Shown here in pieces: positions 4,487 to 23,553 of a stretch of 44,927 nt of DNA. This stretch comes from Candidatus Jorgensenbacteria bacterium RIFCSPHIGHO2_02_FULL_45_20 (GTDB taxonomy: Bacteria; Patescibacteriota; Minisyncoccia; UBA6257; GWB1-50-10). The DNA is taken from assembly GCA_001779535.1 (NCBI GenBank), contig MFKJ01000023.1:1-44927 (forward strand), read 5' to 3'. The first letter of the stretch is position 1. The number at the start of each line of letters is the position of its first letter. The notes beneath the pieces are model-generated. The model made no database searches. It was given only the letters and a program-made list of their open reading frames with translations, and had not been told where the DNA came from. A program made the position numbers and the translations under genes.

Positions 4487-4552
4487 CCAGTGCGTAGCAC
4501 TGGAATGACGATCCGCCGGTTGGCGGATGGAAATTCCACTGCTATGCAGTGG
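4487..4552 (+). repeat. Family-A three-hairpin module, short form, in the 16S helix-6/V1 position
   Basis: ccagtgcgtagcactgg-aatgac-gatccgccggttggcggat-ggaaattcc-actgctatgcagtgg. It matches 20781-20846 in the 23S at 64 of 66 nt. Confidence 0.85.
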
Positions 4553-4643
4553 CTAGTGGCAAACGAGCTAGTAACACCTTGGTACCTACCTCCGAGATGG
4601 GAATAATCTTGCGAAAGCAGGACTAATACCCAATGGCGCCATA

Positions 4644-4790
4644 CGCATCTCACTAAGGTGAGATGCGAATTCGAAATTTAAAATTTGAAATTCGAAATGA
4701 ATGAATCAATTATAAAATTGAATAATTAAAAATTCATTAAAAATTTCAAACTAAAAATTAAAAATTCGCACAGAACTTTAGTGAGGTGCG
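4644..4790 (+). repeat. Family-B insertion in 16S (V2 region), conserved termini and AT-rich core
   Basis: Starts CGCATCTCACTAAGGTGAGATGCGAAT and ends AAAATTCGCACAGAACTTTAGTGAGGTGCG. The same termini bound 20097-20199 in the 23S, and they interrupt an otherwise alignable 16S sequence. Confidence 0.8.
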
Positions 4791-5048
4791 GGTGGCTAAA
4801 GGTTCGCAAGAACCGCTCGGTGATGGGCCTAGGTCCGATCAGCTAGTTGGTAGGGTAACGGCCTACCAAGGCTACGACCGGTAGGGGAGGTGAGAGCCTG
4901 TTCCCCAGCGAGGAAACTGAGACACGGTTCCTACTCCTACGGGAGGCAGCAGTCGAGAATATTCCACAATGGGCGAAAGCCTGATGGAGCGACGCCGCGT
5001 GCAGGATGAAGCTTTTCGGAGTGTAAACTGCTTTTCTAAGGGAAGAAG

Positions 5049-5178
5049 CCGGTGCTTCGCACTGGAATGACGAATTTAGAATTTCGATTGAATTTCAGAA
5101 TGTTTTAAAAATTAACTCATTCAAGAATTCATTTAAAATTCAAAATTAAAAATTGGAAATTCCAATGCGGAGCATTGG
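5049..5178 (+). repeat. Family-A module, long form (AT-rich filler replaces hairpin 2), in the 16S helix-17/V3 position
   Basis: H1 is ccggtgcttcgcactgg, followed by aatgac, about 90 nt of AT-rich filler starting gaatttagaatttcga, then ggaaattcc and H3 ccaatgcggagcattgg. Confidence 0.8.
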
Positions 5179-5489
5179 TTGACGGTACTTTAGGAATAAG
5201 TCACTGCTAACTACGTGCCAGCAGCCGCGGTAATACGTAGGTGGCAAACGTTATCCGGATTTATTGGGCGTAAAGGGCGCGTAGGGGGCGCAGGCAAGTC
5301 CGTAGTTAAATCTCGGGGCTCAACTCCGAAACCGCTACGGAAACTACCGCGCTAGAGGACGTTAGAGGTAGATGGAACGCACGGTGTAGGGGTGAAATCC
5401 GTTGATATCGTGCGGAACACCAAAGGCGAAGGCATTCTACTGGGACGTTCCTGACCCTGAGGCGCGAAAGCGTGGGGAGCAAAAAGGAT

Positions 5490-6115
5490 TAAGTGTTTTT
5501 GTTTTATATTCACAAATAATTCTTCGTTTGTTATAAACCGGAATAATTTTTATTTTTCGTTTTCACGAAAAATATTGAACTCAACCCCTCGACGAGCTCG
5601 GGGGATTCAAACAGCAATATTTTTCTAACTTCAAATAAAAATTATTACGCGATTTATGAAACAAATTCAGAAAATATTTGTTCAATAAAACAAAAACCCA
5701 CCTGAGGGTAGGTGGAAAATAGTCCCTCCGCCGATTGGCGGAGATAACTCAGCTATATGCTGGAACACCCGAGTATCCAACGATACCGAAAGGTAAAAAT
5801 GCGTTGGTGCGGGCAATCAGCAGGGAAGTCGTAATTGACCCCTCAGAGACTATACGCAGAGCCCGTTGCGGAGCAACGGAATTACGAATTTAGAATTTCG
5901 AATTTTGGTTGAGCATCCAATTAAAAATTTGAAATTAAAAATTAGGAATTCCGCGCTTTGCGCGGTGAAGATATAGTCCGACCTCCGTGGCGACACGGAG
6001 AGATGAACAGAAATGATTCATCCCGCGACAATGTTTGTAATTTTGATTTTGAATTTGTTTTAAAATTTGAAATTAAAAATTAAAAATTGCACTTTGTCGC
6101 GAAGCAACAAACGTG
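5490..6115 (+). ncRNA. Group I intron in 16S at E. coli position 788, with no ORF
   Basis: It splits the universal GGAT|TAGATACCC. The 5' exon ends in U and the insert ends in G. The core strings TCAGAGACTATACGC and GAAGATATAGTCCGACCTCCGTGGCGACACGGAGAGATGAAC closely parallel the Tetrahymena LSU intron strings ACAGACUAAAUGUC and AAGAUAUAGUCGGACCUCUCC...GGAUGAAG (P7/P9 region). Confidence 0.8.
5863..5965 (+). repeat. Family-A module, long form, nested in the group I intron at the predicted P8 position
   Basis: H1 ccgttgcggagcaacgg is identical to the H1 at 21610-21626. It is followed by aattac, filler starting gaatttagaatttcga, ggaattcc, and H3 ccgcgctttgcgcgg. Confidence 0.75.
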
Positions 6116-6475
6116 TAGATACCCTTGTAGTCCACGCCCTAAACGATGTTCACTAGCTGTTTCGAGTATCGACCCTCGGGGTGGCGTAGCTAACGCGTTA
6201 AGTGAACCGCCTGGGAAGTACGAGCGCAAGCTTAAAACTCAAAGGAATAGACGGGGACTCGCACAAGCGGTGTGGTATGTGGTTTAATTCGATGGTAAAC
6301 GAGAAACCTCACCAGGGCTTGAAATCCCGACGAAGACAGTCCGAAAGGATTGTTGTCCGCAAGGACGGCGGGACAGGTGCTGCATGGTTGCCGTCAGCTC
6401 GTGCCGTGAGGCGTTCCCTTAAGTGGGGTAACGAGCGCAACCCCTATCCGGTGTTACAAGTGTCACCGGAAACCG

Positions 6476-20846: not shown

Positions 20847-20952
20847 CGTGTGACGGTGTGCCTATTGAAGAATGAGCCAACGAGTTTATTTATATTGCGT
20901 GTCTAAGTCCGAGAAGGACGGAGGCGTAGGGAAACCGAGTGTTAATAGCGCG

Positions 20953-21100
20953 TATCGTGTCTCACCATCGTTCAGCACACGCTGATCTATGCCAATTGAG
21001 CCAATGATTAATGTGGATTATGTTGAAATGCATATCCGTATAAATCATTCTCAAGTCCGTGTTAATCCGTATCAGTGCCGAACGGTAGCGAGACACGATA
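20953..21100 (+). other. Unclassified ~148-nt long-hairpin insertion in the 23S
   Basis: The 11-bp closing stem TATCGTGTCTC/GAGACACGATA interrupts ...GTTAATAGCGCG | AGCAGTATGAATAAGACCCGAAACC. Confidence 0.7.
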
Positions 21101-21609
21101 AGCAGTATGAATAAGACCCGAAACCAGACGAGCTTGCCCTGGCCAGGGTGAAGTCCCGCGAAGGCGGGATGGAGGCCCGAACCGGTTGGTTGTTCAACAC
21201 CTTCGGATGAGTTGGGGTAAGGAGTGAAAAGCTAATCGAGTTTGGTAATAGCTGGTTCTCTCCGAAATAGTTTTAGGACTAGCGTCGGAATAAGATTCTC
21301 GGGGGTAGAGCACTGGATGATCGTGAAAGGGAGAAATCTCGCGCGATCAATCAAACTCCGAATACCGAGATATTGTTTTCCGGCAGTCAGACTACGGGGG
21401 CTAAGCTCCGTGGTCGCGAGGGGAAGAGCCCAGATCGCCGTCTAAGGTCCCCAAGTCCATGCTAAGTGTTAAAGGTGGTCGCGTTCCATAAACAGATAGG
21501 AGGTTGGCTTAGAGGTAGCCATCCTTTAAAGAGTGTGTAACAACTCACTATTCGAGGAATGCGGCGCCGAAAATTTATCGGGGCTCAAGCATGGCACCGA
21601 AGACGCGGA

Positions 21610-21781
21610 CCGTTGCGGAGCAACGGAAGCTCCAAATTCCAGATTCCAAATTCTAAATAAATTCTAAATTCTAATTTTCAAATATCAAAACGAATAATTG
21701 TTTTGGTCATTTGAATTTTGTGCTTTGATATTGTTTAGGACTTGGTGTTTGGTGCTTGGGATTTCCGTCGCTTCGCGACGG
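21610..21781 (+). repeat. Family-A module, long form, at the 23S helix near E. coli ~1170
   Basis: H1 ccgttgcggagcaacgg, then AT-rich filler with AAATTC repeats (the inverse of GAATTTAGAATTT), then gggatttcc and H3 ccgtcgcttcgcgacgg. Confidence 0.75.
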
Positions 21782-22452
21782 TGGTAGGAGAGCATTCCAT
21801 GAGCACTGAAGCAGAACCCGTGAGGGGCTGTGGAGCGCATGGAAGAGAGAATGTTGGCATTAGTAATCGCAATCCCGATGAAAACTCGGGACCCCGAAAA
21901 TCCAAGGTTTCCTCCGCAACGAAAATCGACGGAGGGTAAGGCGGCCCTAAGGCAATGGCGAAAGCCGCAGCCGATGGACAGCCGGTTAATATTCCGGCCC
22001 TCCCGCTTTTTTTCGATGAAGTGACGAAGCAAAGTAGATTGAACGTCTTAATGGTTTGATGTTTTTGACCGAGTGTGGGTGCTAGGCAAATCCGGCATCC
22101 TGGATTCAATTCCGAACATCAGGGTAGAAACGAGGTAGGGTTTTTTGCCTTGCCAAGTCAATCGAGCTTGTTTCCGAGAAAAGCTTCTAGAGCTAAAAAA
22201 GTGGGATCCGTACCGTAAACCGCCACAGGTGGGTGAGGCGAGAAGCCTCAGGGGAACGTGTGAGTCCTCGTTAAGGAACTCGGCAAAAAAGCTAGGCGTA
22301 ACTTTGGGATAAGCCTTGCCAGTGCTTCGCACTGGCCGCAGCTAAAGTATCTCTAGCGACTGTTTACCAAAAACACAGCTCCCTGCGAACTCGTAAGAGG
22401 AAGTATAGGGGGTGACGCCTGACCGATGCGAGAAGGTTAACGATGGGGGTTC

Positions 22453-22518
22453 CCAGTGTGCAGCACTGGAATGACGATCCGCCAGCTGGCGGATGGAAGT
22501 TCCAACGCTGTGCGTTGG
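22453..22518 (+). repeat. Family-A module, short form, in 23S domain IV
   Basis: ccagtgtgcagcactgg-aatgac-gatccgccagctggcggat-ggaagttcc-aacgctgtgcgttgg. Confidence 0.8.
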
Positions 22519-23478
22519 GGGCTCACTGTCCGAAGCCCTCGTCAATGTCCGCGGTAACTATAACCGTGTTAAAGTAGCGCAATTCCTTTCCGGGTAAGTT
22601 CCGGAGCGCATGAAAGGCGTAACGACTGGAGAACTGTCTCAACGAGGAGCTCGATGAACGTGCGATACCCGTGAAGACGCGGGTTACCGGCAGCAAGACG
22701 AAAAGACCCCGGAAGCTTTACTGTAGCTTGATATTGGGAGTAATAGTGTAATGCGTAGCATAGTGGGGAGACTTTGAAAGTTCGCTTTCGGGCGGACCGG
22801 AGTCGCCAGTGAAATACCCATCTTTATATTGTTGCTTTCTAACCCGTACGGCAAAAACGTATGGGGACAGTGTCTGGCGGGCAGTTTTTCTGGGGCGGAA
22901 CCCTCCTAAAAAGTAACGGAGGGGCCTATTATGGTCAGCTTGGCGCGGATGGAAATCGCGCCTAAAGTGCAAACGCAAAAGCTGGCTTGACTGCAAGACT
23001 TACAAGTCGCGCAGGTGCGAAAGCAGAGGTTAGCGACCCGACTATTCTTTATAGAAAGGTAGGAGATAACGGACAAAAGTTACTCCGGGGATAACAGGCT
23101 GGTGTTGTCTGAGCGTCCCTAGCGACGACAACGCTCGGCACCTCGATGTCGGCTCACCACATCCCGGGGGTGGAGAAGCTCCCAAGGGTTTGGCTGTTCG
23201 CCAATTAAAGTGGTACGCGAGCTGGGTTCAAACCGTCGTGAGACAGGTTGGTCTCTATCTGCTGTCGGCGTGGGTGTTTGAGGGAAGTTGGCCCTAGTAC
23301 GAGAGGACCGGGCTGAACGAACCTCTGGTCTATCGGCTTTGCCACCAGGTGAATTGCCGAGTAGCTAAGTTCGGACAGGATAAGCGCTGAAAGCATCTAA
23401 GCGCGAAGCCTCTCCCAAGATTAAACACTAGTTCCGGGCAACTGGAACAACGCTTCCTGGAAGATTACCAGGTAAAAG

Positions 23479-23553
23479 CCGGTGCGTAGCACCGGAATGA
23501 TGATCTGTTATTAAGTTTGTTGAACAGATGGAAATTCCGTTGCTATGCAACGG
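23479..23553 (+). repeat. Family-A module with a variant hairpin 2, near the 23S 3' end
   Basis: ccggtgcgtagcaccgg-aatgat-gatctgtt...aacagat-ggaaattcc-gttgctatgcaacgg. Confidence 0.8.

Follow-up and report, generated by a model that had tools for sequence, protein, structure and literature searches.

The question raised by this locus is how one short hairpin-forming sequence came to occupy eight different places in the rRNA genes of a single bacterium. The window considered here is the whole of a 44,927-nt stretch (positions 1 to 44,927 of contig MFKJ01000023.1) of Candidatus Jorgensenbacteria bacterium RIFCSPHIGHO2_02_FULL_45_20, a member of the candidate phyla radiation (CPR). The initial annotation described the eight copies, which lie in the 16S gene, the 23S gene, and a group I intron, as one module of three hairpins (H1, H2, and H3), and proposed for it either a mobile nature resembling that of a MITE (a miniature transposable element with inverted repeats) or a role as a protein-binding platform reiterated on the ribosome. 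All eight copies were found where they had been placed, with their motifs in the order described. On balance, they are probably paralogous helix-tip cassettes of the kind known as intervening sequences (IVSs) or expansion segments, which would have passed from tip to tip by copying of DNA and have been moulded by the folding of the RNA.

The cassette family

The eight cassettes are as follows, with scores in bits from a covariance model of the short copies.

4487..4552, plus strand: short cassette, constituting 16S helix h6 (E. coli nt ~69-100); order H1, GGAATGAC, H2, GGAAATTCC, H3; 94.8 bits; rod minimum free energy (MFE) -50.4 kcal/mol, z = -8.1; identical in L008, another contig of the same organism
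5049..5178, plus strand: long cassette with AT-rich centre of sub-family ii, 16S h17 (E. coli nt ~458-472); 48.3 bits
5863..5965, plus strand: long cassette of sub-family ii, P8 hairpin of the 16S group I intron (cmscan alignment to the P8 stem-loop); 24.2 bits
20363..20428, plus strand: short cassette, 23S E. coli nt ~272-280; 84.3 bits; a long-form cassette occupies the same site in the related contig L025
20781..20846, plus strand: short cassette, 23S H25 (nt ~545); 92.9 bits; 64/66 identical to the 16S h6 copy
21610..21781, plus strand: long cassette of sub-family iii, 23S H45 (nt ~1165-1185); A/C-rich 5' arm and G/U-rich 3' arm; rod MFE -77 kcal/mol
22453..22518, plus strand: short cassette, 23S H68 tip (nt ~1875); 88.3 bits
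23479..23553, plus strand: short cassette with variant H2 (GATCTGTT...AACAGATG), constituting H98 (23S nt ~2795); 79.4 bits

The insertion sites were mapped by alignment to E. coli rRNA, and the names of helices other than H9, H25, and H45 follow what we take to be the E. coli numbering. The alignment bears out that the host helices are not homologous to one another, and in the window as well as in its relatives all the inserts lie at helix tips. The Rfam models of the small and large subunit rRNAs align over their full length, end to end, around the inserts, which indicates that the core secondary structure is intact.

Each cassette is a self-contained RNA hairpin bounded by two GC-rich clamps of 17 nt (H1 and H3), which enclose a GGAA/UUCC stem and a centre that varies. 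Three kinds of centre occur, namely the short GC hairpin H2 and two AT-rich rod types. The AT-rich centres of the long forms, which had been taken for filler, do replace H2, but they are not random, and fall into two conserved sub-families (ii and iii) that recur in other genomes. An internal loop, GGAAUGACGA / UGGAAAUUCC, is strongly conserved in sequence. A kink-turn was considered for this loop and rejected, because on hand check the register gives tandem G·A pairs only by breaking H2.

In the window, the five short copies are the only matches of a degenerate core pattern (0.00 matches expected in shuffled sequence), and the covariance model scores these copies at 79-95 bits and recovers two of the long copies as well, at 5046-5181 and 5860-5968. 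Of their 66 nt, the 16S copy at 4487 and the 23S copy at 20781 share all but two, and both differences fall in the loop of H2 (CCGCCGGTTGGCGG versus CCGCCAGCTGGCGG). The H1 17-mer CCGTTGCGGAGCAACGG is common to the copies at 5863 and 21610, in the 16S intron and in 23S H45, respectively, while the centre and H3 of these two are different. These identities, and all the H1 and H3 variants listed in the initial annotation, were confirmed, and its claim of one sequence family extending over both rRNAs and the intron is supported by the core pattern, the covariance model, and the cross-site identities together. The orientation relative to the transcript is identical in all copies, with the A-rich arm first in every one. 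An apparent copy in reverse orientation, a minus-strand match in the related contigs L026 and L027, was rejected, the near-palindromic GGAA...TTCC frame being such that it matches both strands.

Integrity of the junctions

The copies are found again in three to four assemblies made independently. L012, L013, and L014, contigs that differ in sample and assembler, match 4.4-4.5 kb of the window at 99.96-100% without gaps, and the match runs from the L31 gene upstream of the 23S through the complete 23S and the 5S into the first part of the reductase gene. In L008 (JGI Ga0075968_121) the three 16S copies are unchanged. Every junction is thus reproduced in independent assemblies, and the copies are therefore not chimeras, a possibility that the initial annotation had named as one that would refute it.

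L008 is 99.7-100% identical to the window, but is without 80 nt (window 5450-5529, comprising 16S nt ~770-790 and the intron start) and without 123 nt at the 16S 3' end (window 6778-6900), the anti-Shine-Dalgarno region included. Positions 103-1770 of the window are replaced by different DNA in L008. These deletions and the replacement could reflect misassembly or strain variation.

That the risk of chimerism is real, though it does not apply to the window, is illustrated by L026 (ENA ERZ27254745 k141_281477), a chimeric metagenome contig joined across the conserved 23S. Its L25 and L31 genes and the 5' two-thirds of its 23S are of the window type, and the 3' part and the reductase gene are from the organism of L027.

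Rod and local hairpins

Every copy is folded by RNAfold into a single extended hairpin (rod; z = -4.7 to -8.3), with H1 paired to H3, GGAAU to AUUCC, and the centre at the tip. For the short copies, RNAalifold likewise gives the rod as the consensus structure, in which 7 pairs are compensated. When the local H1 and H3 hairpins are forced, the resulting three-hairpin fold costs 4-14 kcal/mol relative to the rod, and is thus predicted to be thermodynamically the weaker of the two.

Covariation was evaluated in 16 distinct H1/H3 pairs. These derive from four genomes and include, besides those of the cassettes, pairs from further inserts that are bounded by end hairpins of this kind. The local hairpins are paired in 96.0% of the cells with a covariation score of 0.64 (neither value reached in 500 shuffles), and the rod pairing in the same 16 pairs is maintained in 86.8% of the cells with a score of 0.58. 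The triloops of H1 and H3 are complementary to each other at 46 of 48 positions, in 12 different loop pairs, compared with 25.6 for shuffled partners; none of 20000 shuffles reaches 46. In the local-hairpin model these loops are unconstrained. H3 is nearly the reverse complement of H1, loops included, and the two constitute terminal inverted repeats. The cassette is therefore a nested palindrome with two mutually exclusive folds, both of which carry a covariation signal. Dual covariation of this kind is unusual, and is directly testable by structure probing.

The outer rod stem and its loops contain 35 G·U pairs versus 3 A·C mismatches, whereas in the inner rod stem the ratio is reversed (3 versus 13). 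Of the two strands, it is the sense strand that folds into the more stable structure in all 17 modules (summed, -830 versus -639 kcal/mol), and the G·U counts over these modules are 95 for sense and 23 for antisense. The G·U asymmetry and the stability of the sense strand indicate selection on the sense transcript and not on a DNA palindrome. Selection on structure, as had been suggested, is thus apparent from both the covariation and the strand bias.

Beyond the cassettes at h6, H98, and intron P8 no host stem is left, so that here the rod itself must be the helix. In the cmscan alignment of the intron cassette, the 5' arm of H1 is paired to the 3' arm of H3, and the base of the rod is aligned as P8. 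The three-hairpin architecture proposed earlier stands insofar as the local H1 and H3 hairpins covary, but the preferred (MFE) fold is a rod by which the host helix is prolonged or replaced, with no junction.

Sister cassettes in related genomes

Relatives were reached via the neighbouring ribonucleotide reductase gene and the 429-aa gene. Eleven look-ups with proteins of relatives yielded four rRNA loci (L023, L025, L027, and L034); L026 is chimeric, and most of the others have a different synteny. L023, L025, and L027 contain a complete 23S, the core of which is 86-87% identical to that of the window. L034 contains the first ~400 nt of a 16S only, and is the sole 16S comparison among the relatives.

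Members of the family are present in the related genomes at the same and at different sites, contrary to the other refuting condition of the initial annotation, that relatives would show unrelated sequences without family resemblance. Sister cassettes of those in the window were found in the four relatives at other sites, namely 16S h6, 23S nt ~272, H9/H10, H45, and the intron at nt 2593. By centre, the long forms are distributed as follows.

Type ii, signature GGAATGACGAATTT ... AATTGGAAATTCC: 16S h17 and intron P8 (window); 23S nt 272 and H45 (L025); H45 (L023)
Type iii, A/C-rich 5' arm, G/U-rich 3' arm, and shared GTTTTGGTCATTTGA core: 23S H45 (window); H9/H10 region (L025); group I intron at nt 2593 (L027); 16S h6 (L034)

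Between type ii copies, 79-92% of the shorter sequence is matched in pairwise comparison. The 16S h17 cassette matches the 23S H45 and nt-272 cassettes of L025 and L023 over 80-86% of the shorter sequence (72-74% and 68% of the longer), and the 23S H45 cassette of the window matches the H9/H10-region cassette of L025 and the intron cassette of L027 over 72-77% of the shorter. Two paralogues at different 23S sites in L025 are 88% identical over 145 nt, with differences mostly in the clamps. The h6 cassette of L034 is a mosaic, with exactly the H1 and H3 17-mers of the window h6 around a type iii centre.

Helix H98, filled in the window, has a short E. coli-like tip in L023, L025, and L027. H68, also filled in the window, has a short tip in L025 and L027, and in L023 an unrelated rod with the same kind of end hairpins. 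H25 is filled in the window and short in L027. The presence of the cassettes is sporadic among close relatives, and other sites are filled differently. The identities, the mosaics, and the filled and empty sites require that whole cassettes were duplicated from one site to another and that copies exchanged parts with one another.

Homologous group I introns are present at 23S nt 2593 in L023 (8790-9100) and L027 (6594-7064), with none there in the window. In the L027 intron, one hairpin tip, which is short in the L023 copy, bears a type iii cassette of 177 nt.

Distribution outside the rRNA genes

Thirteen of the 14 perfect GC hairpins with a 7-bp stem and a 3-nt loop in the window are in rRNA genes, and all 13 fit CCNNNGY-NNN-RCNNNGG; no hairpin of this type is present in ~184 kb of non-rRNA DNA from the window and its relatives. 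A scan with the covariance model, recommended in the initial annotation, gave no credible hit outside the rRNA genes and introns in 232 kb of window and related DNA, including ~39 kb of non-rRNA DNA of the window. Target-site duplications are absent, as direct repeats in the 12-nt flanks reach at most 2-4 nt and differ from site to site, and no conserved motif or tetranucleotide flanks the copies.

The short-form core pattern had ten matches in the GTDB species representatives and JGI metagenomes, nine of them chance matches without end hairpins and one in L008. The short form appears confined to this organism in these two collections, in which a core-pattern scan could miss diverged copies because the H2 base is fixed in the pattern and rRNA genes are often missing from metagenome-assembled genomes. 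Pattern scans of IMG/VR and BLAST against phage and plasmid collections gave no match. No Rfam 15 family reached its gathering score; the hits, all sub-threshold and of the miRNA-precursor type, had a best score of 20.9 bits versus a cut-off of 90. No transposase was found among the 10 window open reading frames (ORFs) scanned against Pfam, or in the Pfam marks of the overlapping contig L012.

The H2-type palindrome TCCGCCRNYTGGCGGA occurs six times in the window versus 0.07 expected. Four occurrences are in cassettes, one is in the intron P2 region (5727-5742), and one is at 12573-12588, at the 5' end of a pilin-like ORF (12557-13672), where it is flanked by AAAATTCAA direct repeats. The last is the only cassette-like fragment seen outside the rRNA.

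Origin of the cassettes

As these comparisons show, the cassettes have spread by duplication and recombination among the helix tips of 16S, 23S, and group I introns within a Jorgensenbacteria lineage. In the transcript, the rod would replace or prolong the host helix. New tips would be colonised, and centres swapped, by DNA-level copying between tips with common clamps, perhaps through ectopic gene conversion or template switching at palindromes, for which clamp hairpins standing alone may be landing pads or remnants. The clamps, each a palindrome that can fold locally, may sequester the insert ends while a long AU-rich centre is transcribed and so prevent the insert from disturbing the folding of the rRNA, which would explain the tolerance of cassettes at so many sites. 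Afterwards, it is the sense RNA on which selection acts. By analogy with the classical IVSs, the long rods are likely to be cut out of the pre-rRNA by RNase III, and the basal GC clamp left after excision may hold the rRNA fragments together. The processing stem that brackets the 23S would be indirect support for such processing.

Several considerations weigh against this account. Full excision would give about ten 23S pieces and about four 16S pieces, and we know of no described bacterium in which fragmentation comes near this extent. The local palindromy of H1 and H3 is superfluous for an RNase III substrate, and the rod has recurrent mismatches, in which H1 positions 13-15 lie opposite H3 positions 3-5. 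The clamp homology of 7-17 nt is short for RecA-dependent conversion, and the copying mechanism is purely a matter of inference. The comparison rests on five genomes and ~39 kb of non-rRNA DNA of this genome. Moreover, between L025 and L023 the orthologous H45 cassettes agree in 92% of the aligned columns, versus 76-86% for the spacers, and this conservation, like that of the internal loop, would also fit a retained, functional element.

Retention is indeed a serious rival, even if a possible rather than a probable one. According to it, the cassettes are expansion segments that remain part of the mature ribosome, possibly as a cruciform (four-way junction), with the GGAAUGACGA / UGGAAAUUCC loop as a site, reiterated on the ribosome surface, at which a protein docks or a tertiary contact is made. 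The near-complete pairing and strong covariation of the local hairpins are in its favour, as are the rod mismatches, which would block conversion of a cruciform into a rod, the excess conservation of the H45 cassette, the linker sequences conserved across genomes with 23S cores only 86% identical, and the extreme fragmentation that excision at all sites would entail. H25, H45, H63, and H98 are also the sites of the eukaryotic expansion segments ES7L, ES15L, ES27L, and ES39L. On the other hand, the rod is the more stable fold by 4-14 kcal/mol, the loop complementarity and the G·U asymmetry show selection on its pairing, and h6, H98, and intron P8 offer no host stem to close a junction. The conserved loop is missing from sub-family iii, and the free swapping of AT-rich rods and a GC hairpin in the centre is hard to square with one binding function. 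No candidate binding protein was identified. Only the conserved loop speaks for sequence-specific recognition, and the platform proposed in the initial annotation is neither supported nor excluded.

A DNA-level mobile element, be it a MITE, a palindrome-associated element of the IS200/IS605 type (PATE), or a repetitive extragenic palindrome with its tyrosine transposase (REP/RAYT), would have its transposase elsewhere in the genome and copies surviving only at rRNA helix tips. The inverted repeats at the ends, each of which is also a hairpin like the substrates of HUH transposases, the lack of target-site duplications as in IS200/IS605, and the single orientation, as expected of strand-specific single-strand transposition, would agree with such an origin, as would the filled and empty sites in related genomes and the existence of solo hairpins. 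The likeness to PATE or REP/RAYT elements is further qualified, since the end hairpins of the cassettes are inverted copies with complementary loops. This origin is nevertheless improbable: no copy lies outside the rRNA in 232 kb, though intergenic insertions should be neutral, none was found in GTDB or JGI beyond this organism or in phage, plasmid, or IMG/VR sequences, and the scanned window ORFs and the L012 Pfam marks contain no transposase. In addition, the G·U-rich arms make the fold specific for the sense RNA, and the flanks have no conserved target motif. A classical MITE is disfavoured, as it fails on the duplications, the distribution (including the single orientation), and the strand-specific pairing, and the MITE-like module of the initial annotation is, in the sense of a DNA transposon, not supported; a single-strand transposon dependent on hairpins would still be conceivable. 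It is highly improbable that there is no family, i.e. that the similarity is due to assembly chimerism or to convergence on a design of GC clamp plus AU rod at independent expansions. L026 is really chimeric across the conserved 23S, and GC-rich palindromes of the form CCNNNGC...GCNNNGG are all partly complementary to one another, but three independent assemblies match the whole 23S and both unique flanking genes without gaps at 99.96-100%, the cross-site identities of 64/66 and of 88% over 145 nt are beyond convergence, and the core pattern is expected 0.00 times by chance.

A bolder interpretation, which is doubtful at present, is that the cassettes represent an undescribed class of rRNA-specific mobile RNA module in CPR bacteria. 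Such a module would be a nested palindrome, bistable (rod or cruciform) and autonomous in folding, with clamps acting as insulators in co-transcriptional folding and as recombination handles, and would hop whole or by its centre among helix tips of 16S, 23S, and self-splicing introns, possibly with a dedicated hairpin-recognising protein or nuclease. If this were true, much of the unexplained load of short insertions in CPR rRNAs would come from a few such families.

Further modules and genomic setting

The host genes, the intron, and the other inserts in the window are as follows.

4417..6882, plus strand: 16S rRNA gene; Rfam SSU_rRNA_bacteria, 1284 bits; 2466 nt versus a 1533-position model; carries three cassettes and one family-a module
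5490..6115, plus strand: group I intron in 16S, after E. coli nt 788; Rfam Intron_gpI at 5625-6000, 57.9 bits; limits from the E. coli insert map
19942..23624, plus strand: 23S rRNA gene; Rfam LSU_rRNA_bacteria, 2330 bits; 3683 nt versus a 2925-position model; carries five cassettes, one solo hairpin, and three modules of other families
22319..22335, plus strand: GC-clamp hairpin standing alone, CCAGTGCTTCGCACTGG, which caps the helix at E. coli nt ~1720 (H63); 1 nt different from H1 of the h17 cassette
4644..4797, plus strand: family-a module, 16S h10 (alignment and rod folds); arms match 20097-20201
20097..20201, plus strand: family-a module, 23S H9/H10 region (alignment and rod folds)
20257..20315, plus strand: family-b module (GTGCCTCAC...), 23S E. 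coli nt ~229 (alignment and rod folds)
20954..21098, plus strand: family-b module, 23S E. coli nt ~652 (alignment and rod folds)

The arms of the family-a modules (~30 nt; CGCATCTCACTAAGG.GAGATGCGAAT / AAAATTCGCA.AGAACTTTAGTGAGGTGCG) are nearly identical, and their AT-rich centres differ in length. Family b (GTGCCTCAC...GTTCAGCAC...) is found in the relatives at nt 272 and 652 (L023 5684-5820 and 6390-6530) and at nt 1720 (L027 5722-5862). The presence of families a and b at several sites shows that site-hopping is not limited to the main cassette family.

A solo clamp hairpin similar to that in the window, CCAGTGCTTTGCACTGG, is present in L025 (3016-3032), and solo clamps cap tips that in other genomes are occupied by long inserts. 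Such clamps may represent empty landing pads, or what remained once a centre had been lost. In the 16S intron, a second AT-rich rod lies near the 3' end (6034-6090; GCGACAATG...CACTTTGTCGC) and has a stretch of ~27 nt, AAAATTTGAAATTAAAAATTA, in common with the P8 cassette (5896-5950).

The rRNA genes are unlinked in the window. The L31 gene lies upstream of the 23S, which is followed by the 5S (23694-23811) and then by a class II ribonucleotide reductase gene, the product of which is 100% identical to a protein listed by NCBI under Candidatus Jorgensenbacteria, in line with a CPR bacterium. The 23S is bracketed by a processing stem of ~50 bp (19900-19960 with 23605-23665, -59 kcal/mol); the 16S flanks pair more weakly (-35 kcal/mol). 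In L034 and L035 the genes for PfkB, a 411-aa protein, FBA, RF-1, SLT, L25, and L31 are contiguous, and in L034 the 16S follows L31. In the window (4417-15045 in this comparison), the 429-aa gene is separated from FBA by the 16S and a block of type IV pilus genes, and L31 is followed by the 23S. This amounts to a rearrangement of the rRNA operon by which 16S and 23S became unlinked by 13 kb. Two pilin-like genes in the window (7528-8091 and 8122-8718) are tandem duplicates with an N-terminal methylation motif, with 77-85% DNA identity over repeated segments at a spacing of about 636 nt.

Significance and comparison with known systems

Insertions in rRNA are a hallmark of CPR bacteria, of which only the class of introns and homing endonucleases has been explained so far. 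This locus shows that at least some of the short ORF-less CPR inserts belong to a few cassette families, duplicated and recombined among helix tips of both rRNAs and introns, and are no independent accidents, so that bacterial rRNA insertions can spread as a family instead of arising one by one. This provides a concrete model for the quick gain of many expansions by a bacterial rRNA. It also represents a natural 'plug-in' RNA element that is tolerated at many ribosomal sites and is useful for rRNA engineering. The clamp hairpins and the GGAA/UUCC stem can serve as signatures for finding such elements and, in these lineages, for correcting rRNA phylogeny and the design of primers.

IVSs form stem-loops, bounded by terminal inverted repeats and cleaved by RNase III within the stem, with 23S helices 9, 25, and 45 as the classical sites (PMC4990558; Tsurumaki 2024, PMC11270868), and are described as inverted-repeat stems and suspected remnants of mobile DNA (PMC4990558, PMC2801512). 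Those of Salmonella, Yersinia, Campylobacter, Leptospira, Coxiella, and the alpha-proteobacteria resemble the cassettes in being ORF-less or small inserts at helix tips (23S helices 9, 25, and 45; 16S 5' domain), with terminal inverted repeats in a long stem, AT-rich relative to the host, and sporadic among relatives. As to the classical sites, the window has cassettes at H25 and H45, and L025 has one in the H9/H10 region, where the insert of the window is a family-a module; cassettes also occupy the non-classical tips at 23S nt 272, H68, and H98 and at 16S h6 and h17. Whereas classical IVSs are found at one to two sites per gene, the cassettes constitute one family at at least eight sites, with two other families elsewhere. 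The cassette ends, unlike those of IVSs, are nested palindromes with two competing folds, and excision, described for IVSs, is predicted for the cassettes. In a literature search that was not exhaustive, no report was found of bacterial IVSs forming one sequence family across non-homologous helices, across 16S and 23S, or in introns.

The CPR rRNA insertions already described share with the cassettes the clade, the many inserts per rRNA gene, and the presence of short ORF-less non-intron inserts at IVS sites. These short inserts were suggested to be IVSs and left 'uncharacterized' (Tsurumaki et al. 2024, PMC11270868), and insertions in CPR rRNAs are removed from the transcripts according to Brown et al. 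(2015), as cited in the same survey. The survey differs from the present analysis in that it covers inserts of at least 100 bp, so that the 66-nt short form is below its cut-off, and classes them by intron type and homing endonuclease, without a shared short cassette, modular ends, or exchange between sites (PMC11270868).

The eukaryotic and archaeal expansion segments (ES7L, ES15L, ES27L, and ES39L) are, like the cassettes, tip extensions at H25, H45, H63, and H98 that leave the core fold intact. They differ in being retained, site-specific, and vertically inherited, with cross-site sequence sharing limited to simple GC-rich repeats. The Correia elements or NEMIS of Neisseria, which are MITEs with hairpins cleaved by RNase III, and the palindromic elements (RPE) of Rickettsia are inverted-repeat elements of ~100-150 nt that form long RNA hairpins and, like the cassettes, are tolerated in transcribed genes. 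Unlike the cassettes, this set comprises hundreds of dispersed copies in both orientations that are not rRNA-specific, and the Correia elements have target-site duplications.

In behaviour, the nearest analogues are the mobile hairpin elements of fungal mitochondrial DNA. The double-hairpin elements of Allomyces are reportedly present in rRNA variable regions and introns. These elements (Paquin et al. 2000, as cited in PMC5910586) and the GC clusters of yeast mitochondrial DNA (PMC4478555) are mainly intergenic, genome-wide, and organellar, and have no sequence relationship to the cassettes, but like the cassettes they are short hairpin-forming repeats, the mobility of which is inferred from presence and absence between relatives.

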